Origin: Candidatus Amesbacteria bacterium GW2011_GWC2_45_19
Lineage (GTDB): Bacteria; Patescibacteriota; Microgenomatia; CAZETR01; Amesbacteraceae
Assembly (NCBI GenBank): GCA_001001555.1
Contig: LCKS01000002.1
Coordinates: 7,074 to 71,073, forward strand
Length of the DNA: 64,000 bases
Direction: 5' to 3'
Position numbers and translations under genes: made by a program
Shown here: positions 13,192-58,542 of the stretch, in pieces
How the letters are laid out: each line of letters begins with the position of its first letter
How positions within the stretch are numbered: position 1 is the stretch's first letter
Notes under the pieces: generated by a model
What the model was told of the DNA's origin: nothing
The model's input: the letters and a program-made list of their open reading frames with translations, nothing else
Databases searched by the model: none

Positions 13192-13258
13192 TAATTATTT
13201 GTTAAATACAACGGTCGTGAAATTTGACAAATAATAATGAAAAGAAAATAATAAATCA

Positions 13259-13804
13259 GTGAATAAAAGAAAAGTAACTGTTGGAGGAATTCTAAAGTTG
13301 ATAAACGACGCTGGAGAAATCTTTTTACCTCTGACCAGGAAAGGAACATATAGACAATTGTACTCACCTCGGATCTTGAGTCTGGAGGATTATTTTCCAT
13401 CTGAAATAAAAAGAGTGGCCAGCAGATTAATCCGTAAGGGACATGTGCAAAAAGAAGAAACTTCCGATGGTTGGATAATAAAAATTACTAATAAAGGAAA
13501 GAACGAGATATTAAAATTCAGACTGGAAGAATTTAAACCCAAAAAAGATAAATGGGACGGATTATGGCGACTGGTATTTTTTGACATAGAAGAGGTCAAT
13601 AGGAAGAAAAGAGACATGCTACGGAAATATTTAAAGAAACTGGGACTCAAACAAATGCAGGAAAGTGTATGGGTTGGCCCATTTGATGTAAGTTCTGAAG
13701 TCAAATACTTACGCGAGGTATTGGACGTTCCTCACGAGGTAAAAATTGGGGTGATGAAAGAGTTGGAAAACGCCGAAGATTTAAAAGGATGGTTTGAACT
13801 ATGA
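13259..13804 (+). CDS. hypothetical regulator-like protein with Cas2/PaaX-C-like ferredoxin-fold C-terminal domain
   Basis: WDGLWRLVFFDIEE...KYLKKLGLKQMQESVWVGPFD matches the VapD/Cas2/PaaX-C type fold pattern. Flanked by 45-bp direct repeats (see findings). Confidence 0.35.
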   Translation: MNKRKVTVGGILKLINDAGEIFLPLTRKGTYRQLYSPRILSLEDYFPSEIKRVASRLIRKGHVQKEETSDGWIIKITNKGKNEILKFRLEEFKPKKDKWDGLWRLVFFDIEEVNRKKRDMLRKYLKKLGLKQMQESVWVGPFDVSSEVKYLREVLDVPHEVKIGVMKELENAEDLKGWFEL

Positions 13805-13879
13805 TATTTGTTAAATTCAACGGTCGTGATGAATGACAAATATTATGTGAGATGGAGTTTTTGTAGTAAACTTAAAGTC

Positions 13880-15151
13880 ATGGATCTGATGGAAAAAATC
13901 GTCAGCCTGTGCAAGAGAAGGGGATTTGTATTTCCCGGAAGTGAAATTTATGGCGGGATGGCTAACTCTTGGGATTTTGGCCCGGTTGGCGCCCAACTCA
14001 AAAAAAATATCAAGGATCTGTGGTGGAAAACTTTTGTGGAAAGCCGGGATGACGTTGTGGGTTTGGATGCCACCATAATCATGAACCCCAAAGTTTGGGA
14101 AGCCTCGGGTCACATAGAAGGGTTTTCCGATCCATTAGTCGAATGTAAGTCTTGCCACAACCGCTTTCGGGCCGACCAAATTGACATTAAAGATGTCTGC
14201 TCCGATTGCGGTAAAAAAGACTGGAGTCCGGTAAAAAATTTCAATCTCATGTTAAAAACTTTCCTCGGCCCAGCAGAAGATTCCGCCCACGCAGCTTATC
14301 TGCGCCCCGAAACCGCCCAGGCCATGTTTGTGGATTTCAAAAATGTTCTTTCCTCTAACCCAAAAAAGTTGCCATTTGGTATAGCTCAAATGGGAAAAGC
14401 TTTCAGGAACGAAATTACTACGGGAAACTTTTTGTTTAGATTGCGCGAGTTTGAAATGATGGAGATTGAGTACTTCGTTCACGAAAAAGATTGGAAAGAA
14501 GCGTTTGAGATGTGGCGGAAAGAAATGTGGAATTGGTTTGAATTAATGGGTATCGATAAAACCAAAATTCACGAACACGAAATTCCTGACGGGGAAAGAG
14601 CGCATTATTCCCAAAGAACTATAGACTTTGAGTTTGAGTATCCCTTTGGACAAAAAGAACTATACGGCTTGGCTTATCGCACCGATTATGACTTGAAGAG
14701 GCAGCAAGAGTTTTCAGGGCAAGATTTATCATACGCAGGTATAATGCCCCATGTCATAGAACCAACTTGGGGAGTAGATAGAACATTTTTAGCCGTTATG
14801 CTTTCTGCCTATCATGAAGACGAAAAGAGAGTTATTCTTAAACTTCATCCCAAACTCGCTCCATATAAAGTTGCCGTTTTTCCGCTGGTGGCCAATAAGG
14901 AGAACATCGTTAAAAAAGCCCGGGAAGTTTACCAGTTACTGAAACCAGTTACAGTTACTACATGGGATGACCGCGGCAACATCGGCAAAAGATATTACGC
15001 CCAGGACGAAATCGGTACTCCCTGGTGTGTAACTATCGATTATCAGACTTTGAAAGATGATACTGTCACCGTGCGCGACCGGGACACCGCCCAACAAGTG
15101 CGCGTGGCAGTTTCTGAACTTGACAGTTATTTCCCAGAAAAGTTAAAGTGA
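13880..15151 (+). CDS. glyQS: glycine--tRNA ligase, dimeric alpha2 type
   Basis: GFVFPGSEIYGGMANSWDFGPVGAQLKKN..., class II aaRS motifs and C-terminal anticodon-binding domain. ORF opens at 13808; ATG 13880 or 13889 likely. Confidence 0.9.
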   Translation: MDLMEKIVSLCKRRGFVFPGSEIYGGMANSWDFGPVGAQLKKNIKDLWWKTFVESRDDVVGLDATIIMNPKVWEASGHIEGFSDPLVECKSCHNRFRADQIDIKDVCSDCGKKDWSPVKNFNLMLKTFLGPAEDSAHAAYLRPETAQAMFVDFKNVLSSNPKKLPFGIAQMGKAFRNEITTGNFLFRLREFEMMEIEYFVHEKDWKEAFEMWRKEMWNWFELMGIDKTKIHEHEIPDGERAHYSQRTIDFEFEYPFGQKELYGLAYRTDYDLKRQQEFSGQDLSYAGIMPHVIEPTWGVDRTFLAVMLSAYHEDEKRVILKLHPKLAPYKVAVFPLVANKENIVKKAREVYQLLKPVTVTTWDDRGNIGKRYYAQDEIGTPWCVTIDYQTLKDDTVTVRDRDTAQQVRVAVSELDSYFPEKLK

Positions 15152-19888: not shown

Positions 19889-20928
19889 CCATCACTCTCC
19901 TGGGTTTAGGACTCACCATCTTTGGTCTGCTGATGGTCGGCAGTTCATCGGTGGTAGATGCCGCCCGGGATTTTGGCGACAAGTGGTATTACCTCAAACT
20001 CCAATCCGGCTGGGCGGTCATGGGACTAGCCGGATTTTTTTTAATCTCCCGTTGGCCATATCAGAAACTGGAAAAACTCTCCGTCTCTTTATTGCTTATT
20101 ACTTTATTACTTCTTGTTCTCGTTCTCATCCCCGGTCTGGGATCCAAACTTCTGGGAGCGCGCCGCTGGTTAAGTTTAGGCTTTTTCAGTTTTCAACCCG
20201 CAGAGCTGGCTAAATTAACCCTGGCCATTTATTTTTCCAGTTTATTGAAAAAAGCCACCCGTTTCCGGCCGTTTATTATAGTTTTGGGGTTAACCGGCCT
20301 TTTAATTATGTTGGAACCGGATTTGGGCACAACTTTGATTTTGACCGGCAGCAGCTTACTCACCTATTTTGGCAGCGGAGGCCAACTGCGCTATCTGGGT
20401 CTGATAATTCCAGTTTTTATCATTGCCGCGGCCGCTCTCGTCTTTTTTTCTCCATACCGCCTTGACCGCCTGAAAACCTTTTTTGATTATTCCCGTGATC
20501 CCCTGGGGTCTTCTTATCACATCCGCCAGGTTCTCTTGAGCCTGGGATCGGGCGGCGTGTTTGGAGTGGGCTTAGGCCAATCCAAGCAAAAATATGAATT
20601 CCTGCCGGAAGCCACTACCGACTCCATTTTTGCCGTCATTGGTGAGGAACTGGGGTTGGTAGGGGGGTTGGTCGTCATCGCCGCGTTTCTGGTCTTTATG
20701 CGCCAAGGCTTCTTGATTGCTGCCTCCGCCCCCGATCAATTCGGGGCCAACCTGGTTCTGGCCCTGACCTCCTGGATTTCTCTGCAGGCCCTGGTTAATT
20801 TAGGCGCCATGGTAGCTATCATCCCCTTAACCGGCGTCCCCCTGCCCTTCATCTCCTACGGCGGCTCCTCCCTGGTCCTGGTTTTGCTGGCATCAGGTAT
20901 ACTAGTTAATATTGCCAAACAGAAGTGA
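19804..20928 (+). CDS. ftsW: SEDS-family peptidoglycan glycosyltransferase FtsW
   Basis: LEPDLGTTLIL and PLTGVPLPFISYGGSSL motifs, dcw position. ATG 19804 overlaps mraY by 85 nt (no alternative ATG before the first TM). Confidence 0.85.
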   Translation: MGRTQNCHAGLVGRYYVSHFWPVARSALTITLLGLGLTIFGLLMVGSSSVVDAARDFGDKWYYLKLQSGWAVMGLAGFFLISRWPYQKLEKLSVSLLLITLLLLVLVLIPGLGSKLLGARRWLSLGFFSFQPAELAKLTLAIYFSSLLKKATRFRPFIIVLGLTGLLIMLEPDLGTTLILTGSSLLTYFGSGGQLRYLGLIIPVFIIAAAALVFFSPYRLDRLKTFFDYSRDPLGSSYHIRQVLLSLGSGGVFGVGLGQSKQKYEFLPEATTDSIFAVIGEELGLVGGLVVIAAFLVFMRQGFLIAASAPDQFGANLVLALTSWISLQALVNLGAMVAIIPLTGVPLPFISYGGSSLVLVLLASGILVNIAKQK

Positions 20929-20946
20929 TATAATAAGTGCATTATT

Positions 20947-21186
20947 ATGAAAGTCAAGAAACTCGATTATCTTATTGAGTTAGTCTACGATAAAGCCTAT
21001 AAGGGTTATGTCGCTGAAGTAGTTAATCTCTATGGTTGTATGTCTCAGGGTAAAACTAAAAAGGAAGCATTAACAAACGTCGACAAAGCCATTAAAGCTT
21101 ATATGGAAGCATTAACCAAAGCTGATAAGGATACGGAATTTGTTCAACGAAGAGTCAACACTCCCGTTCCTCTGGCTTATGCCTAA
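20947..21186 (+). CDS. hicB: HicB-family antitoxin
   Basis: GYVAEVVNLYGCMSQGKTKKEALTNVDKAIKAYMEAL matches the HicB/UPF0150 RNase-H-like fold antitoxin family. Confidence 0.75.
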   Translation: MKVKKLDYLIELVYDKAYKGYVAEVVNLYGCMSQGKTKKEALTNVDKAIKAYMEALTKADKDTEFVQRRVNTPVPLAYA

Positions 21187-21400
21187 GCTGACGAATATTT
21201 CAGGCAGGAATGCAGTTAAAGCTTTTATCAAATTTGGTTACTTGCATGTACACACTTCTGGCGACCATGCAATCCTGCAAAAATCCGGATCTCCTAGCTT
21301 ATCTATACCTTTACACAGGGAAGTGGCTCCATTTCTCTTAAAATCTCAGGTCAAAAAAGCAGGTATTTCAATTGATGATTTCATTAAGGAGTTGAAGTAA
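21179..21400 (+). CDS. hicA: HicA-family mRNA interferase toxin
   Basis: AVKAFIKFGYLHVHTSGDHAILQKSG...IPLHREV...QVKKAGISIDDFIKEL is a YcfA/HicA-like dsRBD toxin. ORF opens at 21140; ATG 21179 overlaps hicB stop by 8 nt. Confidence 0.75.
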   Translation: MPKLTNISGRNAVKAFIKFGYLHVHTSGDHAILQKSGSPSLSIPLHREVAPFLLKSQVKKAGISIDDFIKELK

Positions 21401-21408
21401 AAGAATCG

Positions 21409-21472
21409 GTTCCTCCCTGGTCCTGATCCTCCTGGCCTCCGGCATTCTCGTCAACACCGCCCGCTGCTCATA
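21409..21472 (+). repeat. relic duplicate of the ftsW 3' end (in-frame ...SSLVLILLASGILVNTARCS*)
   Basis: 15-nt identical core TCCTCCCTGGTCCTG and amino-acid-level colinearity with ftsW 20863-20928; lies immediately after the hicBA insert. Confidence 0.7.
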
Positions 21473-39768: not shown

Positions 39769-41447
39769 TTATCGTCAAATACCGGGCGGCCGCAGAATTA
39801 GCTGCTTGTTTACCCAGTCTGAAAAAATATCATGTCATCATCGTCGACAACGACAAAATAAACCGGGGTTATGCCGCCGGCAACAATCTGGGGGCTAAAA
39901 GTGCCAAAGGGGAATACTTGCTCATTCTCAATCCGGACACGGTCGTTTCCCCCGGCGCCATCGAATTATTAGCCACTTTTCTGGACACTCATCCCCAAGC
40001 CGGAATTGTCGCTCCGTTTCTTCTTGACCCAGCCGGCCGGCCCTATCCTTTGCAAGGCACCCGGGAGCTCACGCCCCTCACTGGTCTGGTCGCTCTCTCG
40101 TTTCTGAACCAGATTCCTAATCCCATTTCCCGCCATTACTGGCTGGCCGATTGGGACAAACGCCAGCCGCGCCAAGTAGACGTCGTCCCCGGCACAGCTT
40201 TTCTTATTCGCAAGCAAATTTATGACCAACTCGGCGGATTCGATGAAAACTTCTTCCTCTATTTTGAAGAAGCCGATCTCTGCCGCCGTGTCCGGCATGC
40301 GGGCTGGGAAATTTACATGTATCCGCCGGCCAAAATTATGCATTACTGGGGCGCCAGTACCCCAAAATCTGCCCGTATCCAGGCCATTTTCTCCGCTTCC
40401 CGTTTTTACTACTTTCGCAAGCATTTCGGCCTGCTTTGGGCCATCGTAGTCCATCTCGTTTGTTCTTTTTCTCTCCTCTGGCTGGCGGTTATTTTAGGAG
40501 CCGCCCTGCGTTTCTACCGGTTTCCTGGCCTTATGCCCTTTATCGGCGACCAGGCCTGGTACTATTTGGCCGCCCGCGACGCTCTTCTGGGCGGGAGATT
40601 GCCCTTGTTGGGCATCACCGCCAGCATCACCTGGCTACATCAAGGCCCACTTTGGACTTATCTCCTGGTTCCCTTGATTGCCCACCCCGTCCTCCCAGCC
40701 ATCCTGACCTCAATCATGGGCGTGGTCTCCGTTTATTTAATTTACTTCCTAGGTGGCTGGCCAGCCTCTCTGCTATTAGCCGTTCTGCCATTAGCCGTTC
40801 TCCAATCCCGCATGCCCTACCACACATCTCTCATTCCTCTATTTTCTATTCTCTTTCTCCTATTTTTACGTCGTCATAAAGATTTCCTCGCCGGCCTCTT
40901 CCTCGGCTTCCTCTATCAATTGCACCTGCTCACATTCATCTTCTGGCCAATTATGTTTTGGCGCCGCCGCCTCATCCCCGGTTTTATTCTGGGGATTCTC
41001 CCTTTTTTACTAGTGGGACCAGTCCAAACATTTGGAATTCTCGCCTGGATCGCCAAGCATTCTCTCGCCGGTTTCGGCGGCTCCACCATCTCCACAGCCT
41101 ACCTCGTCGTCCTCCTCGTCCCCGCCATCCTCGTTGTCTCTTGGTTTCTCAATCGCCTTCCAAAGTTTATCGGGATTTTGATAATTGTGATTTATTTGGG
41201 ATTTAGTTATTCGAATTTAGATATTGGTTCATCTTTATCTAGCAGAATCGTTCTATCTAAAGCAATTTTGAGGGAGAGCGGCACTGACGCTCCGGAAATT
41301 GTCATGTCCGGTCCCGGTTCCAAATTTCGCTCCTACTCCATGCCCTACGAATACCTCGTCTGGTGGCTGTCCCGTTCCACCTCTCCAGAGGGCTCTCACA
41401 CAAAATTCCTTATCCATGAGTCCTCTCAAACTTTCGAACAGCTTTGA
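39747..41447 (+). CDS. GT2 glycosyltransferase fused to a C-terminal polytopic membrane domain
   Basis: N-terminal VSIIIVKY...DNDKINRGYAAGNNLG...LLILNPDTVV GT2 core then about 300 aa hydrophobic domain. Confidence 0.7.
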   Translation: MPSRVSIIIVKYRAAAELAACLPSLKKYHVIIVDNDKINRGYAAGNNLGAKSAKGEYLLILNPDTVVSPGAIELLATFLDTHPQAGIVAPFLLDPAGRPYPLQGTRELTPLTGLVALSFLNQIPNPISRHYWLADWDKRQPRQVDVVPGTAFLIRKQIYDQLGGFDENFFLYFEEADLCRRVRHAGWEIYMYPPAKIMHYWGASTPKSARIQAIFSASRFYYFRKHFGLLWAIVVHLVCSFSLLWLAVILGAALRFYRFPGLMPFIGDQAWYYLAARDALLGGRLPLLGITASITWLHQGPLWTYLLVPLIAHPVLPAILTSIMGVVSVYLIYFLGGWPASLLLAVLPLAVLQSRMPYHTSLIPLFSILFLLFLRRHKDFLAGLFLGFLYQLHLLTFIFWPIMFWRRRLIPGFILGILPFLLVGPVQTFGILAWIAKHSLAGFGGSTISTAYLVVLLVPAILVVSWFLNRLPKFIGILIIVIYLGFSYSNLDIGSSLSSRIVLSKAILRESGTDAPEIVMSGPGSKFRSYSMPYEYLVWWLSRSTSPEGSHTKFLIHESSQTFEQL

Positions 41448-42167: not shown

Positions 42168-42200
42168 ATCAAAAAGGCGTGGCCTTTCAAACCTTTCAAA
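42168..42200. repeat. REP-like palindrome (right flank of RAYT, inverted orientation): ATCAAAAAGGCGTGGCCTTTCAAACCTTTCAAA
   Basis: Reverse complement matches 41446-41465 with one mismatch; AAAGGC-GTG-GCCTTT hairpin. Confidence 0.75.
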
Positions 42201-44756: not shown

Positions 44757-44827
44757 GCCTCCTTAGCTTAGTGGTAAAGCGGCGGTATCGTAAACCGCGG
44801 ACGCTAGTCCGATTCTAGCAGGAGGCT
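44757..44827 (+). tRNA. tRNA-Thr (anticodon CGU), no encoded CCA
   Basis: Hand-folded: acceptor GCCTCCT/AGGAGGC, D-arm GCTT-AGTGGTA-AAGC, anticodon stem GCGGT/ACCGC loop ATCGTAA, T-arm GCTAG-TCCGATT-CTAGC (unusual C at position 55). Confidence 0.65.
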
Positions 44828-45095
44828 CTGCGCCTCGTCCTCGCAGAGCGAGAGACGGGCGGCACAAACTTATGTATACCGTCTACGTTTTAAAAAGTCT
44901 GAAAGATGGAAGGAAAATATTAGAAGAACCAAACAATTCTATATCAGTCGATGATTATATAGCCGCCAGATGGGGAGAAAAAAAGCATGTAGGTCAGTCT
45001 ACCCCCACTGGGTTGAAGTAGACACACCAAACAAAATTATCATTGTCACCCGCATCAAGCACTGTAAAGACGTGTACAGATAGCACAGATAGCAG

Positions 45096-53185: not shown

Positions 53186-53279
53186 CAGGGAATTTTCCCG
53201 AAAATCAGTTCGAACTTTTTCAAAAATCAGCTCAAAAGTCCTAAATTTTGAGTTGGTAACGATTAAAAGGTAAGTAGTT

Positions 53280-54167
53280 TCAAGATATGTTTCTTGTAAT
53301 TGTTTTCATTTTAAACATTTTTGTATCTATCAAAAACTCATACCCCGTTAATTTTAGCCATAGGTTAATGTTTTCTGTCAGTTGATACATTGGTACACCC
53401 AGATGACTAACCAGACTCCGATTAATCTTATAGGTTTTAAGTGCTTCAGCCTCATGATATTTAGGAATGTCTGGAAAATCTAAAACTTGATATTTATCGT
53501 CTTTCACTCTCCTTAAGAGTAAAAACCTGTCAGGATAATTTTTGTTCTCCTTGTTAACCTCACTACCCCTAACTAACCTGTATTTATTTTTAACATCTTT
53601 ATCTTCAGAAGGGAGAAAGATATTTTCAATTTTCTGCACGTCACTCACATCTCTAAGTCTTTTCAATAATTCAATAACTGCAATGATTTGATCATTTTCA
53701 AATTTTTCTGTGATAAGGGGGTTTTTCAAAATATTTTCGAGGTTCGATTCGTACGCCTCCCAAGTTCTGAATATTTGAAATCCAAAAAAGGTATTTGTTT
53801 CCAATAATTTGTTTATATCTTTTAAGCTTATAGATAAAAATTTGGACACACTACTTTGGCTATAATCTAACTCTTCCAGTGGATAAAAGAATTTCATGAG
53901 TTGATATACTATTCCCAAAACCTCTCTATCAATCTGCATTTTTCCGTACTCAAATATTTCTTGATTTAGTTTTCTGTTGGAAACACTCTTTATCAGTTCA
54001 TAAGAAATTAGGATTGCCGTAATAGCAATTAACGAAGCAGAAATATTAATTAAAAGATCTCTAATGTTTCCATTAACATATTTGCTTAGGCAATATATGA
54101 AAATGCCTGTTAGAAAAGATACAAAATAGGGCAACATAGTATAGAAAAAGCTTTTTGGAAATTTCAT
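53280..54167 (-). CDS. hypothetical membrane protein (2 N-terminal TM + cytoplasmic domain)
   Basis: 295-aa ORF, AT-rich, no known motif. Confidence 0.4.
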   Translation of the reverse strand: MKFPKSFFYTMLPYFVSFLTGIFIYCLSKYVNGNIRDLLINISASLIAITAILISYELIKSVSNRKLNQEIFEYGKMQIDREVLGIVYQLMKFFYPLEELDYSQSSVSKFLSISLKDINKLLETNTFFGFQIFRTWEAYESNLENILKNPLITEKFENDQIIAVIELLKRLRDVSDVQKIENIFLPSEDKDVKNKYRLVRGSEVNKENKNYPDRFLLLRRVKDDKYQVLDFPDIPKYHEAEALKTYKINRSLVSHLGVPMYQLTENINLWLKLTGYEFLIDTKMFKMKTITRNIS

Positions 54168-54313
54168 ACCCTAATTATAAATCAAGTTGTGTTGGTGTTA
54201 TACTCGGATTACCGAATGACCTCTGTGGTGAAGGTATCTTACTTTTAGAGAACTGATGGCACGAAAGTGATCCATCTTAGCCACAGAGATCGCATACAAA
54301 TAGGTATCAAAAT

Positions 54314-55129
54314 ATGAACGGGAATGATAAAGCATTGGTAACGCAGAGGATTGGTCAGTTAAAAAAATCGGCTGGAGAGTTAGCTGAGAATGTCACAGTA
54401 AATAATAAAAAAGAGTTTGTAAGTGTGGTGGGTTTATTACTTCACAACCTTGCCTCAGTCGTCGTTCCTGGATATGCCGTTGGTGCGGGGACTATAAAAG
54501 ATTATTATGATCAAAAGGTTAATAAGAAAAGACAACAAGAGATTGATTCTCTCCTGGGCAATTTAAATAGACGTTTGTCTTCAGTTGAGATAAAGCAAGA
54601 AGCGGTCGATTATTTTGAAAACACAATTGTGTTTCAGCTCGAAGAAATAACTCGGAAATTATTAACAAATCCCGGCAGAGGCTTTGGTGAAGTAATAGCT
54701 GAATTTGTCGCTAGCGCATTAGAAAACATGGATCTTCACCCCAAAACTAAAGATCTTGTACTATCTACGCTCCTAAGCTTGGACAGCGTAGATCTTTTGG
54801 TGCTTAAAACTATGGACAAGCATTTTCTTTCAAATTTACCTCAAAATGGAGGAAATGGGGCTAGGGGCGTAACCAGAGATTCTATTTGTACCTTACTTAA
54901 GGACCGCAATATGGACGAAGCTGTTATTGATCGATCTCTCCAGCGACTACAGTCAGAATCACTTATTCAACCCATGAAAGTTAGTGCTCCCGCTATTACT
55001 GAAGCTCCGACTGCGGATGAGTTGTATAAAGGAAAACGACCTGACCAATTCGATGCTCCCGGAGGATTTATTAACACAGGTTTCGGTAGAATATTTATTA
55101 ATTTTCTTAAACTGAATGACGACAAATGA
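54314..55129 (+). CDS. hypothetical protein
   Basis: 271-aa ORF, 4-nt ATGA overlap with next gene (translational coupling). Confidence 0.4.
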   Translation: MNGNDKALVTQRIGQLKKSAGELAENVTVNNKKEFVSVVGLLLHNLASVVVPGYAVGAGTIKDYYDQKVNKKRQQEIDSLLGNLNRRLSSVEIKQEAVDYFENTIVFQLEEITRKLLTNPGRGFGEVIAEFVASALENMDLHPKTKDLVLSTLLSLDSVDLLVLKTMDKHFLSNLPQNGGNGARGVTRDSICTLLKDRNMDEAVIDRSLQRLQSESLIQPMKVSAPAITEAPTADELYKGKRPDQFDAPGGFINTGFGRIFINFLKLNDDK

Positions 55130-55950
55130 ATATCAAAAATGATATTGATGTAATAATTCAGAACCTTAAATCATCGTTAGATTCAACTTCTGAGTCAAAA
55201 AAGCAATTGAGCGGATACACAATTCAGCTAGGGAAACAAGAAGAGCAAATTGAATCGGCAATTAACTTATGGGAAGAAATGAAAGGACAGAATGTCACGC
55301 CTCCTCAACCAATCACCGCCTCTGGAGTTGCACTAACTTATACTCTCCAACAATCATCACAAGATTTAAAGACATACGTCTCGAATCAAAGTTGGACAAA
55401 TCAGCTACAAGCTTTGGGGACAACTGCTCTAACAATAAATTCTGTTGCTGCTTCTGGAGCCTCGCTCTCATACCCACCAGGATATCGTTCGCAAGCCCTT
55501 GTTCAAGTAAATCTAATTGAAGAGAGGTATAGTCAAAGATCTGCGATCTCGCAGAAACTTTATGCAATTGATCAGTCATTAGGCCAAGAGTATGATAACG
55601 CTTGGCAAACATTACATCAGGCCACTCAAGATCCTACCCGTTCACCAATGTTTCTAATGAGGGAGGTGGAACGCAGATTGCTTGATTATTTTGCTCCAGA
55701 GATCGAACTTAGAAAGTATCATTCATTAGTTCCTAGCGACAAAATAACAGGCAGGCATAAAGTAGATTACTTGAAATCAATAATCAAACCATCTGCACAA
55801 ACCGCTTTTCTTGCCCAAGAACAGGCGTTAAATAACATTTATGCTTTATTGAGTAAGGCACATTCACCAGGCCAATTAGACATCGAGAAAACTAAAGCAT
55901 TTTTATACCAAGCTGATGCTCTGATTCAATTACTATTAGATTCTTTTTAG
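55126..55950 (+). CDS. hypothetical protein
   Basis: 274-aa ORF coupled to upstream ORF. Confidence 0.4.
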   Translation: MNIKNDIDVIIQNLKSSLDSTSESKKQLSGYTIQLGKQEEQIESAINLWEEMKGQNVTPPQPITASGVALTYTLQQSSQDLKTYVSNQSWTNQLQALGTTALTINSVAASGASLSYPPGYRSQALVQVNLIEERYSQRSAISQKLYAIDQSLGQEYDNAWQTLHQATQDPTRSPMFLMREVERRLLDYFAPEIELRKYHSLVPSDKITGRHKVDYLKSIIKPSAQTAFLAQEQALNNIYALLSKAHSPGQLDIEKTKAFLYQADALIQLLLDSF

Positions 55951-56065
55951 GTCCGACTCCGGTATCGGGTATTCAAAACTTCCAGGCTAACTCAAAAAAG
56001 CAAAAAAACCTGGCTCGAACCAGGTTTCTAGGCTAAATTTGCTAAAATTTCAATTCATTACGGTA

Positions 56066-56139
56066 TGGAGCGGGATACGGGAATCGAACCCGCTTCTTCT
56101 GCTTGGGAAGCAGATATACTACCGGTGTACTAATCCCGC
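56066..56139 (-). tRNA. tRNA-Gly (anticodon CCC), CCA encoded
   Basis: Reverse-complement fold: acceptor GCGGGAT/ATCCCGC, D-arm GTAC-ACCGGTA-GTAT, anticodon stem TCTGC/GCAGA loop TTCCCAA, T-arm GCGGG-TTCGATT-CCCGT. Confidence 0.8.
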
Positions 56140-56379
56140 ATTTAGTAGTTTTTTCAAAGCCTCGCCACCTTTGTAGGATTTTATCATCTTTTCTCTGGCT
56201 AAAGCTTCACTATATGTCTCATACTGCTCAGAATAAATTAATTTCCAATTTCCTTTAGCATAACGAGTTGAAGTAGTTTTTCCCCGATTGTGTTCAGCCA
56301 GTCGTTTTTCCAAGTCAGAAGTACAACCGATATATCTCCGGTTTGAAAGTATATTTTGGATAATATAGGTCCAAAACAT
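56119..56379 (-). CDS. small GIY-YIG nuclease (stand-alone catalytic domain)
   Basis: MFWTYIIQNILSNRRYIGCTSDLEKRLAEHNRG...KGNWKLIY...E motif set of GIY-YIG domain. ORF extends to 56412 through a hairpin; 3' end overlaps tRNA-Gly by 21 nt. Confidence 0.7.
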   Translation of the reverse strand: MFWTYIIQNILSNRRYIGCTSDLEKRLAEHNRGKTTSTRYAKGNWKLIYSEQYETYSEALAREKMIKSYKGGEALKKLLNAGLVHR

Positions 56380-56409
56380 CTGAACCCCCTTCTCCCCGCC
56401 TTGGCGGGG

Positions 56410-56434
56410 CATACTACCGGTGTACTAATCCCGC
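56410..56434. repeat. 25-bp perfect direct repeat of the tRNA-Gly 5' portion (other copy 56116-56140)
   Basis: ATACTACCGGTGTACTAATCCCGCA occurs twice, bracketing the GIY-YIG ORF. Confidence 0.9.
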
Positions 56435-56469
56435 ACTTCGACTCCGCTCAGTGTAAACTATTTTACAAC

Positions 56470-57039: not shown

Positions 57040-58542
57040 TCAATGGGTATTCATTTGAAAACGGCCCGAACCGGTCAGGAGGCGCAGTGGGGAAGGATTG
57101 ATGGCTTGCAGTTGGGATACACTCTTGGCTCCTCTAAATACCATGGCCAGAATCGCGTCTTCGGTCAGCATATGCAAATTGTATGTCAGGGTCGGTAAAA
57201 CGTTTTTTACATAGCTCATTTCAGCCTTGGTTGTTTCTCCTTCCACAAACGAAGGAATAGTGAATGGCAGCAATTTGCCGTCTAAAAATTTGGTTCTGGC
57301 CGACGCCTCTCCCCCGTAAGGCTTAAACAATCTGCCTTTCTCGTCAGAACAAAACAGCATTCCCCCCGGGGATTCGATGGTTCCTCCCGCCACCACCCGG
57401 GAAACGCTGATCCCGGAAGCTCCCAGCAGTAAACTGGTGGCTACATGGTCTGATGCGCCTCCCTCGACAATAATGGGAATTAGCAGCTCGCCCCGCAGTC
57501 CCCATACCAGTTCCGGCCAATCAATGACCGATCCGCTTCTTACTCCCGTGACGCATCTGCCTCCGCCGCCGACGCCCACAAATAATCCGTCGGCCCCCGC
57601 TTCCTGCACCCGCTTGGCCTGGTCGACGTCTACCACTTGGCCTGAAAACATTTCCACCTTTTGTCCAAATTCCTTTCTCAGAGCCATAGTTGTCCGTTCC
57701 AAATTCAGCCCCGGTTCCGGAGAATACACCCTAAATGATCTTACTCCGGCTTTATACAGCGAATTGGCTCTTTCCAAAGCTGTGATAGGATTAGTTTCCA
57801 GAGTTCCCACCACATTGTTTTTCCACCACCCGGAAACCCCTCTTCTGTCAGCCCGTTTGGCCAGTATCAGCTCTTCCAGCTCGTCCAATCTCTCGAATAC
57901 TTCTCTGGCCAAATCGGCTTGCCGGACAATTTTCGACAGCACGCCATTTCTGGGAATTCCAGCCAAACTGTGGCTGGCAGCCATGGTGGCTACCGCCAGC
58001 GAACTGTTCCATACATCAGGAGAGGCAGATCCTACAAATAGGTTTCTACCCTGGCGGCCCAGTTTGACAAAAGGGCCTTGGGCATATCTTTCTGTCCGGC
58101 TGATTCTGTCCCGGTCCGAACCCGTAACGCTGGCTCCCAAGTCTCCAATCGACAGGCTCATTCCCGTTTTGGCCACGTAGTCAAAAGCCCCGCATTCAAT
58201 TTTTGCCGGGGGTAGAAACTTGCTCCCTGTTACGGATTTTAAGTAGCCCATTCTGTGAGGATGATTGAACAGTTCCAAGAAAAACAGCCGCATCCTCAAA
58301 GTTTCGATCATTTTTTCCTGGGGCAGCATCTGCAGCGAAGCCACCGGCAAAGCGTCAAAAGGAGTCAACAACAACCCTTGGCTAGGATACACATCATCAT
58401 GGTTTTTACTCACTTTCAACCATGGCTCTAAATATCGGCTAATGTTTTTTTCATAAGGGAGCAGTTTGTCTAAGACTTTCTTTTCTCCAAAATCTTTTTC
58501 CCGGAATTTATTAAAATCGTTTCTTAACTGAGCGTTTGACAC
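57040..58542 (-). CDS. IMP dehydrogenase/GMP reductase-family TIM-barrel protein with novel N-terminal extension
   Basis: GVGGGGRCVTGVRSG and IIVEGGASDHVATSLLLGASGISV resemble IMPDH catalytic loop and phosphate-binding regions; about 170 aa N-terminal region without match. Confidence 0.45.
   Translation of the reverse strand: MSNAQLRNDFNKFREKDFGEKKVLDKLLPYEKNISRYLEPWLKVSKNHDDVYPSQGLLLTPFDALPVASLQMLPQEKMIETLRMRLFFLELFNHPHRMGYLKSVTGSKFLPPAKIECGAFDYVAKTGMSLSIGDLGASVTGSDRDRISRTERYAQGPFVKLGRQGRNLFVGSASPDVWNSSLAVATMAASHSLAGIPRNGVLSKIVRQADLAREVFERLDELEELILAKRADRRGVSGWWKNNVVGTLETNPITALERANSLYKAGVRSFRVYSPEPGLNLERTTMALRKEFGQKVEMFSGQVVDVDQAKRVQEAGADGLFVGVGGGGRCVTGVRSGSVIDWPELVWGLRGELLIPIIVEGGASDHVATSLLLGASGISVSRVVAGGTIESPGGMLFCSDEKGRLFKPYGGEASARTKFLDGKLLPFTIPSFVEGETTKAEMSYVKNVLPTLTYNLHMLTEDAILAMVFRGAKSVSQLQAINPSPLRLLTGSGRFQMNTH

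Follow-up and report, generated by a model that had tools for sequence, protein, structure and literature searches.

How can a small nuclease gene come to lie across the 5′ end of a tRNA gene while that tRNA gene stays whole? This question is raised by the tRNA-Gly(CCC) locus of Candidatus Amesbacteria bacterium GW2011_GWC2_45_19 (contig LCKS01000002.1), of which we analysed a stretch of 64,000 nucleotides, referred to here as the window. The FtsA protein encoded in the window shows 100% identity to that of Candidatus Amesbacteria bacterium GW2011_GWB1_47_26, a groundwater genome of the Microgenomates within the Candidate Phyla Radiation. An earlier note on this DNA had described a stand-alone GIY-YIG mini-gene embedded in the tRNA gene and bounded by a direct repeat of the tRNA 5′ end, and had taken the whole for a mobile or homing-type insertion. 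We describe here a cassette of 295 bp that sits between the promoter/leader and an intact tRNA-Gly(CCC), and that joins the nuclease gene to a partial tRNA copy carrying a hairpin. Because precisely empty sites occur in relatives, the same tRNA gene appears to have been invaded repeatedly, the wider family is linked to tRNA genes and to partial tRNA copies, tandem arrays are found in some lineages and the nuclease looks active, we hold with moderate confidence that the unit is a selfish cassette of the homing type, resident in tRNA genes, entering by recombination through tRNA homology and keeping the tRNA intact.

Anatomy of the cassette

Read 5′ to 3′ along the minus strand, a LysM stop codon is followed by a 34-nt leader, by GCGGGATTAGTACACCGGTAGTAT (tRNA positions 1-24), a single G, a 16-nt hairpin, AGAA, GGGGG-TTCAG and the ATG of the nuclease open reading frame (ORF) (Table 1). 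The TAG stop of this ORF (56121-56119) falls within the D-loop of the tRNA, giving the overlap of 21 nt between ORF and tRNA that had been reported previously and that ARAGORN, Rfam and Pfam bear out. The 25-mer TGCGGGATTAGTACACCGGTAGTAT occurs exactly twice, in copies 295 bp apart, and has no match in any of 100 shuffles even with 3 mismatches permitted; the second copy of the tRNA 5′ end is thus an exact repeat, as claimed, with its coordinates corrected from 56410-56434 to 56411-56435. The hairpin noted before the ORF is likewise present. Translation is best placed at a conserved ATG (56379-56377), which yields the expected 86 aa, since a longer frame of 97 aa (start 56412) is not kept in the related loci L099 and L003.

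Table 1. Features of the tRNA-Gly(CCC) locus, in window positions
Feature	Position	Strand	Evidence
tRNA-Gly(CCC), intact, with encoded CCA end	56066..56139	-	ARAGORN; Rfam tRNA model, 63.2 bits
GIY-YIG nuclease gene, 86 aa, Slx1/UPF0213 type	56119..56379	-	Pfam, PDB-profile, fold and dN/dS evidence
Exact 25-nt direct repeat, downstream copy (5′ end of the functional tRNA)	56116..56140	-	Two exact matches
Exact 25-nt direct repeat, upstream copy (tRNA position -1 to 24)	56411..56435	-	Two exact matches
Pseudo-tRNA (tRNA-Gly positions 1-57, anticodon arm swapped for GC hairpin)	56380..56434	-	Sequence reading; local alignment
Hairpin CCCCGCC-AA-GGCGGGG, in place of the 17-nt anticodon arm	56394..56409	-	Sequence; minimum-free-energy and centroid folds
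Native tRNA leader, between LysM stop codon and pseudo-tRNA	56436..56469	-	Homologous leader in empty sites
Candidate -10 box TAAAAT within the leader	56465-56460	-	Conservation in empty sites only
Intrinsic terminator 3′ of the tRNA	56004..56029	-	Terminator scan

The upstream copy of the tRNA extends well beyond the 25-mer. Likeness to the tRNA resumes past the hairpin, where AGAA-GGGGG-TTCAG in the copy stands against AGAA-GCGGG-TTCGA in the tRNA, so that about 55 nt (positions 1-57) are represented: AGAA corresponds to the variable loop and GGGGG-TTCAG to the 5′ strand of the T-stem and the T-loop, in which the ATG of the nuclease ORF begins. In local alignment, tRNA positions 1-24 and 43-54 flank a 16-nt module. 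We refer to this hairpin-bearing copy as a pseudo-tRNA. Matching architecture, including the pseudo-tRNA segment, was found in the independent assemblies L001 (with a protein 99% identical to that of the window), L002/L099, L003 and L118, which excludes an assembly artefact.

A terminator scan identified no terminator on the minus strand between the leader and the tRNA. Since termination is predicted after the real tRNA and nowhere inside the unit, the tRNA would be transcribed through the cassette, and the two are presumably co-transcribed up to the tRNA terminator. The start of this transcript can be placed tentatively, as a consensus scan of the locus returned no full sigma-70 promoter and the -10 assignment relies on conservation in empty sites. 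An RNase P cut at the 5′ end of the tRNA would strip the stop codon from the nuclease ORF, raising the possibility that nuclease translation and tRNA maturation compete on a single transcript.

The protein matches the GIY-YIG family (PF01541) with 61.9 bits against a cutoff of 22.6 (E 7.4e-17), over profile positions 1-70 of 78. In an alignment of 13 sequences Y17, G19, H31, R63 and E64 are invariant, with R27 and N32 nearly so; these columns are taken to hold the residues of the catalytic motif (Tyr of GIY, Tyr of YIG, Arg, His and Glu), as assigned from I-TevI and UvrC. Profile searches of the PDB identified the UPF0213 proteins BH0048 (1zg2, E 1.7e-12) and EF2693 (1ywl, E 4.8e-10) as the closest solved relatives, followed by Slx1 (about 5e-4) and I-TevI (8e-4). 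An AlphaFold 2 model (pLDDT 83.4) has the three strands and three helices of a GIY-YIG fold, and Foldseek searches with this model returned 1zg2, Slx1 (TMq 0.62-0.69) and the catalytic domain of I-TevI, with TM scores of 0.6-0.7 for 1zg2 and Slx1. Sequence and predicted fold thus place the protein in the minimal Slx1/UPF0213 (YhbQ-like) branch of the GIY-YIG superfamily. PADLOC and NCBIfam gave only weak, below-cutoff matches to ‘homing endonuclease’ (‘HEase’) or group I intron endonuclease models. Between the window and L099 the ratio of non-synonymous to synonymous substitution rates (dN/dS) is 0.10 at a dS of 0.57, and the ORF is under purifying selection. This selection, together with the invariant residues of the catalytic motif and the predicted fold, makes the mini-nuclease look active.

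The non-coding part of the unit is conserved as well. Window and L099 share 0.60 identity in the leader, 1.00 in pseudo-tRNA positions 1-24, 0.97 from the hairpin to the ATG, 0.87 in the ORF (0.75 at third codon positions), 0.93 in the real tRNA and 0.57 in the 3′ flank. Against L003 the hairpin segment is 0.94 identical and the ORF 0.67, and leader identity across both comparisons lies at 55-60%. The hairpin-to-ATG segment stands out as the best conserved part of the unit. An N-terminal coding extension, as in the 97-aa ORF, was considered as the cause and rejected: the upstream ATG is out of frame in both L099 and L003, so conservation of the segment does not come from coding. A non-coding segment so strongly conserved is more readily seen as a cis element than as a decaying scar, and points to a cis function for the pseudo-tRNA and its hairpin.

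Further signs of selection on the hairpin come from the family at large. Of 86 homologous loci, 66 have one hairpin or two of the type CCGC-N3-8-GCGG in the 170 nt before the ATG, against a background rate of about one per 4-5 kb. The consensus of the single form is CCCCGCC-N3-4-GGCGGGG and that of the double form CCACCGCC-N4-GGCGGGG-T-(C/T)CCGCC-N4-GGCGG(G/A). Of 74 distinct hairpins, 72 have a complementary stem pair beside the loop (CG 54, TA 9, TG 4, AT 4, GC 1), where 2,000 shuffles gave a mean of 55.6 and a maximum of 63; an outer pair covaries between C:G and T:A and is paired in 67 of the 74 (shuffle maximum 59). In the window, the hairpin forms in both the minimum-free-energy and the centroid fold of the 5′ region, though the stability of this region alone is not significantly above that of shuffles (z = -1.14). 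The whole transcript folds with z = -3.15, its pseudo-acceptor strand pairing to the 3′ acceptor strand of the real tRNA; we regard this as a curiosity and draw no evidence from it.

The module takes different places within the pseudo-tRNA. In Gly-CCC, Gly-TCC, His and Glu units it stands in for the anticodon arm; in Ser and Tyr units it is inserted after anticodon-loop nucleotide 35, and the pseudo-tRNA then resumes with the local 3′ anticodon stem; elsewhere it lies in the D-loop or T-loop, and in L009, L023 and L065 it is nested within an earlier module. The arm swap is close to length-neutral in the Gly, His and Pro pseudo-tRNAs, with 15-17 nt standing in for 16-17 nt. Permissive Rfam searches (E up to 10 for the window region and up to 0.5 for 12 related loci) returned true tRNAs only, with no match to an intron, ribozyme or known leader.

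Filled and empty sites, and units beside other tRNAs

The earlier note had proposed a search for the empty site in relatives. Metagenome contigs were scanned with a pattern for the real tRNA, from D-arm to 3′ acceptor strand, giving 81 stretches, of which 80 loci were analysed. The order LysM then tRNA-Gly(CCC) proved to be conserved synteny, and among the 71 such loci with enough upstream sequence, 66 are precisely empty and 5 filled. Even the nearest relatives, L138 and L147 (LysM 83% identical), are empty. Their leader (..GGTAAAATAATCCCAGTTTACACTGAGC..CGAAGT) passes straight into the intact tRNA and shares both TAAAAT and TTTACACTGAGC with the leader of the window, whereas in the window and L099 the homologous leader passes into the pseudo-tRNA instead. 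The cassette therefore lies between the native leader and the tRNA, and its presence varies within a tight clade. One mark of a free-standing homing gene, presence or absence at one conserved site with a precisely empty counterpart among close relatives, is thus seen here.

Comparison of these loci also bears on what moves. The T-stem sequence after the hairpin of the window is GGGGG, as in L099, while the real tRNA of the window and that of L138/L147 have GCGGG, suggesting that the hairpin, the 44-57 segment and the ORF travel together as one piece. Other GIY-YIG proteins occupy the same tRNA gene at lower identity to that of the window: 63% in L104, 54% in L118 and about 35% in L153/L157, where the hairpins lie in the D-loop. 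Judged by their sequences, at least three GIY-YIG lineages occupy tRNA-Gly(CCC), and the differences between their proteins and in the position of the hairpin within the pseudo-tRNA imply that this gene has been colonised repeatedly.

Three relatives with an empty 5′ side of tRNA-Gly(CCC) carry a GIY-YIG mini-gene close by. It adjoins the neighbouring tRNA-Asp(GTC) in L126 (4951-5199) and L165 (1833-2063) and lies 32 nt downstream of tRNA-Gly(CCC) in L166 (202-450), so that different tRNAs of one neighbourhood have been struck in different lineages.

A profile built from the first homologues retrieved 80 loci from species-representative genomes of Patescibacteria, Omnitrophota, Bacteroidota, Ignavibacteria, Neomarinimicrobiota, metagenome-assembled genomes labelled Gammaproteobacteria, and others. 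Where the flanks reach at least 200 nt on either side of the ORF (60 loci), a co-oriented tRNA abuts the ORF in 52 and an opposite-strand tRNA in none; in the remaining 8 the co-oriented tRNA lies further away, at about 90-550 nt. The partner tRNAs are Gly-CCC, Gly-TCC, Glu-TTC, Ser-GGA/CGA/TGA/GCT, Tyr-GTA, His, Pro and Cys. Upstream of the ORF, most loci have a partial tRNA copy that starts at position 1 (local-alignment scores 28-74, controls 10-17) and frequently matches the local tRNA exactly over 14-36 nt. Other GIY-YIG mini-genes beside partly duplicated tRNAs, for which the earlier note had proposed to search the genome, are found across the family. Nearest neighbours among the proteins agree in the amino-acid type of their tRNA in 53 of 73 cases (chance expectation 0.29), with several switches. 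The family as a whole comprises 6,456 clusters (50% identity) at E <= 1e-10 and 25,522 at E <= 1e-3.

These data change how the repeat is to be understood. The proposal of an insertion at the tRNA gene is upheld by the presence or absence of the unit among close relatives and by the intact tRNA; the upstream copy, in turn, is no simple target-site duplication and belongs to the unit itself, because it is conserved, hairpin-modified and found beside many tRNAs in homologous units.

In some lineages the units have been amplified in tandem. Arrays in Bacteroidales begin with a real tRNA-Pro, after which the ORF and a full-length pseudo-tRNA-Pro repeat in tandem; the 17-nt D-arm of these pseudo-tRNAs (and, in the last copy, the T-arm too) is replaced by a hairpin. 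In a few loci 3′ pseudo-tRNA relics with a hairpin persist after the real tRNA.

Such units also leave traces in annotation and assembly. ARAGORN calls pseudo-tRNA-Pro copies with the hairpin CCCCGCC-N3-4-GGCGGGG as their D-arm ordinary tRNA-Pro (L033 1284-2800, L029 2021-2813, L074 52-473), with the result that tRNA counts are inflated in such genomes, and contigs commonly end at these units (L003, L005-L008, L020, L042). The tRNA-linked units can account for recurrent broken contigs, for ORFs over-extended into the hairpin and for odd ‘extra’ tRNA calls in the Candidate Phyla Radiation (CPR) and Bacteroidota.

The window itself may hold a second example. On the plus strand, 43 nt past tRNA-Thr(CGT) (44757-44828), a short ORF at 44872-44916 begins with MYTVYVLKSLKDGRK, a match to the N-terminal GIY motif of the mini-nuclease family, and then diverges. 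Its signal is weak (11.5 bits; 36 family members match by tblastn, best E 0.002) and no tRNA-Thr fragment was found near it; it is probably the truncated relic of another tRNA-linked unit.

Proposed entry by tRNA homology and rival explanations

If the cassette is of the homing type, the conserved tRNA sequence itself would serve as the homology anchor for its entry. A circularised unit, containing tRNA 1-24, the hairpin, tRNA 44-57 and the ORF, could undergo a single crossover with the chromosomal tRNA within the 1-24 homology; or a filled allele could be the template for repair of a break in an empty tRNA gene, its pseudo-tRNA acting as a left homology arm that the unit carries along. Either route would duplicate the anchor as a 25-bp repeat and retain the whole tRNA, and the site would become precisely empty again if the two repeats recombined. 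Units that keep the 3′ part of the pseudo-tRNA, as at tRNA-Pro, would land downstream of the real tRNA, as observed. The nuclease might supply a break or nick at the tRNA gene that stimulates recombination, while the hairpin might mark or disable the extra tRNA copy, or be the cis site of the nuclease.

A number of points weigh against this account. Both the cleavage activity of the mini-nuclease and its target are inferred, and no accessory or DNA-binding domain was found beyond the catalytic core, which fills essentially all 86 aa; for this reason we do not file the unit as a classical homing endonuclease and say only that it works like one. An intact, presumably cleavable tRNA gene lies beside the nuclease gene, and if that gene is the target, self-cleavage must somehow be prevented. 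A dS of 0.57 between window and L099 shows the filled alleles to be old, and purifying selection acts on them, as would also fit a gene that benefits its host. That the hairpin is so strongly conserved and covaries speaks for a cis function, which simple homing does not require. No vehicle for transfer between cells emerged from scans of viral sequences: IMG/VR viral contigs held no relatives of the mini-nuclease, INPHARED phages held only proteins 33-43% identical, and in the one phage context seen, that of Rhizobium phage RHph_Y65, there is no tRNA beside the gene. Finally, gain cannot be distinguished from precise loss at the empty sites.

Some of these points lead to a different account, in which the unit is an accessory module that serves the host, the mini-nuclease acting on RNA or DNA at tRNA loci and the pseudo-tRNA being a regulatory leader, a decoy or an RNA partner, by analogy with a type III antitoxin or a tRNA mimic. 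Such a module might act in tRNA or RNA processing, in protection against toxins or phages that target tRNA, or in tRNA gene amplification, and would spread by ordinary horizontal transfer. We regard this as unlikely. The strong purifying selection on the ORF, the conservation of the hairpin-to-ATG segment unexplained by coding, the stem covariation, a near-equal-length arm swap that preserves cloverleaf geometry (Gly, His, Pro) and the co-transcription implied by the lack of an internal terminator would all suit it. So would the fusion, in one prokaryotic case, of an Slx1-like GIY-YIG domain to a TrmH-type tRNA methyltransferase (PMC1564403), and the finding that SegB-driven tRNA amplification is adaptive in phage (PMC13096335). 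Yet a useful host module would hardly be expected to be so sporadic (5 of 71 loci filled), to be represented at one site by several unrelated lineages, to exist in decayed copies or to form tandem arrays of non-functional pseudo-tRNAs; moreover, PADLOC found no defence-system match beyond the weak ‘HEase’, and GIY-YIG enzymes are known as DNases. The age of the filled alleles could also be that of a fossil: an ancient duplication of the tRNA 5′ end with capture of a GIY-YIG gene, inherited vertically, lost repeatedly through its repeats and no longer mobile, with a hairpin that only stabilises the mRNA 5′ end or tunes translation. A synteny of LysM, pseudo-tRNA, GIY-YIG and tRNA kept down to 54-63% protein identity, the long residence that a dS of 0.57 denotes, a 25-bp repeat that eases precise deletion and a hairpin and start region predicted to fold locally around the Shine-Dalgarno sequence and AUG are in line with this. 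It leaves unexplained, however, the homologous units with locally matching tRNA copies at many tRNAs in many phyla, the three or more independent lineages in one tRNA and the near-identical tandem units, and the first ORF of the Bacteroidales arrays follows a real tRNA and no hairpin, which argues against a simple 5′ untranslated-region device. We therefore consider a fossil quite improbable.

More familiar explanations are effectively refuted. The footprint of an integrase-type island was considered, given the classical use of tRNA genes for integration and the low GC content of a stretch 3′ of this tRNA; it was ruled out by the lack of an integrase or recombinase in the unit, which holds the 86-aa ORF only, and by the duplication of the 5′ and not the 3′ end of the tRNA, of which the window contains no second copy. 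Group I introns do occur in the tRNA genes of Patescibacteria (PMC13011429), but no intron or ribozyme was matched in Rfam at E up to 10, and chance or artefact is contradicted by a repeat far beyond shuffles that is reproduced in independent assemblies.

Returning to the homing-type cassette, the conserved hairpin allows a more specific, speculative proposal that we advance as a doubtful possibility: the pseudo-tRNA with its substituted arm, far from being debris, may work together with a structure-specific Slx1-like nuclease as a tRNA-shaped DNA or RNA site, which could be used in recombination, guide or deceive, or confer immunity. Such units of about 300 bp would then form a new class of tiny mobile units that target tRNA genes through their stem-loop architecture. 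The modules found in, or in place of, the D, anticodon and T arms, their nesting in the loops of earlier modules and the occurrence of the units in many phyla led us to consider it.

Two other inserts in the window had been likened to the one at tRNA-Gly, as possible products of one insertion mechanism. Descriptively the likeness holds, in that repeats of a neighbouring gene boundary flank the inserts. Between 19804 and 22615, ftsW is followed by genes resembling hicB (20947-21186) and hicA (21140-21400), by a 55-nt copy of its own 3′ end (21407-21461, 75% identical to 20862-20916) and by murG; the hicBA toxin-antitoxin pair has been inserted here with a replacement ftsW end, the old end being left as a fragment. 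At 13196-13845, two copies of a 41-nt palindrome-containing element (TATTTGTTAAAT..GACAAATA), 85% identical, flank a 181-aa ORF (13259-13804) between a recO-like gene and glyQS (13808-15151), giving the same topology of repeat, insert, repeat and gene as at tRNA-Gly. All three inserts would be compatible with single-crossover insertion, by a mechanism that may or may not be common to them. A further palindrome, TTTGAAAGGCCACGCCTTTCAAA, recurs at 41439, 41956, 45093 and 60557 (and at 42173 in reverse); unrelated to the GIY-YIG hairpin, it could represent a terminator or an element like the repetitive extragenic palindromic (REP) sequences.

Two neighbouring regions complete the picture. On the 3′ side of tRNA-Gly the DNA varies among the related loci inspected, and in the window a stretch at ~53200-56000 has a GC content of 0.28-0.40, against about 0.5 nearby, and contains ORFs of 271 and 274 aa, the latter with a sub-threshold match to a predicted pPIWI-associated nuclease domain (E 5.5e-5). 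No attachment-site (att)-like repeat of the tRNA 3′ end was found for this stretch, which looks like a second variable region at tRNA-Gly. Farther off, at 57040-58542 on the minus strand, a 500-aa ORF matches the IMPDH/GMP reductase barrel in part only, over profile positions 104-326 of 345, and its long N-terminal region has no match.

Comparison with known systems

Stand-alone Slx1-like/UPF0213 GIY-YIG proteins form a very large family, for whose role linkage to tRNA provides a testable hypothesis. The tRNA-Gly locus, together with the 80 and more related loci, ties at least one large branch of this family tightly and directionally to tRNA genes; this branch carries along a conserved tRNA copy modified by a hairpin, has the behaviour of a mobile element and may number among the smallest autonomous mobile units in bacteria. 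Our literature search, which covered open-access papers, found no description of bacterial tRNA-linked GIY-YIG mini-genes.

Integrase-borne islands and prophages resemble the cassette in that a tRNA segment of the element is identical to its target and is duplicated as the tRNA is regenerated, in a Campbell-type topology. They differ in using tyrosine or serine recombinases, in duplicating the 3′ end of the tRNA and in being kilobases long, whereas here no recombinase is present, the 5′ end is duplicated and the unit measures 295 bp. In fungal mitochondria, free-standing GIY-YIG ORFs, as at Allomyces atp6, reportedly duplicate or replace the end of their host gene. Like the cassette, the nuclease ORF is said to bring a replacement gene end that keeps the gene functional and leaves the displaced native end as a fragment; there the ORF is fused or adjacent to the 3′ end of a protein-coding gene, while here it is the 5′ part of a tRNA, and the copy is conserved with a hairpin. 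The group I introns found in tRNA genes of Patescibacteria (PMC13011429) are likewise selfish insertions in tRNA genes of the same phylum. Unlike them, the cassette has no intron RNA that Rfam matches, and the uninterrupted tRNA needs no splicing.

At the level of the protein, BH0048 (1zg2), EF2693 (1ywl) and the Slx1 domain are the best matches in sequence and fold, and proteins of the BH0048/EF2693 type are minimal, lacking accessory domains, according to a 2006 survey of the GIY-YIG superfamily (PMC1564403). The survey covers prokaryotic Slx1-like minimal proteins and makes no mention of linkage to tRNA genes. Slx1 itself needs Slx4 and cuts branched DNA (PMC8287910, PMC4407285), whereas the cassette encodes no partner protein.

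The nearest experimental precedent is SegB of phages T4 and T6, a free-standing GIY-YIG homing endonuclease in a tRNA gene cluster (PMC2330249, PMC13096335). In phage T6, SegB drives an experimentally shown tandem amplification of a unit of tRNA-Tyr and segB, through short homology of the tRNA 5′ end with the segB 3′ end (PMC13096335), to which the tandem arrays of Bacteroidales form a parallel. In both systems the nuclease gene adjoins tRNA genes outside an intron, is inherited with flanking tRNA DNA and occurs in tandem units with the tRNA. SegB is phage-borne, whereas the mini-nuclease is chromosomal in CPR and other bacteria and consists of a bare 86-aa domain of the Slx1/UPF0213 branch. 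Classical GIY-YIG homing enzymes such as I-TevI and SegB have a DNA-binding part besides the catalytic domain. In addition, the mini-nuclease ORF physically overlaps its tRNA, and its unit includes a hairpin-substituted pseudo-tRNA of a kind not described for SegB. With these differences, the cassette at tRNA-Gly(CCC) and its relatives extend the association of SegB with tRNA genes from phages to cellular chromosomes.

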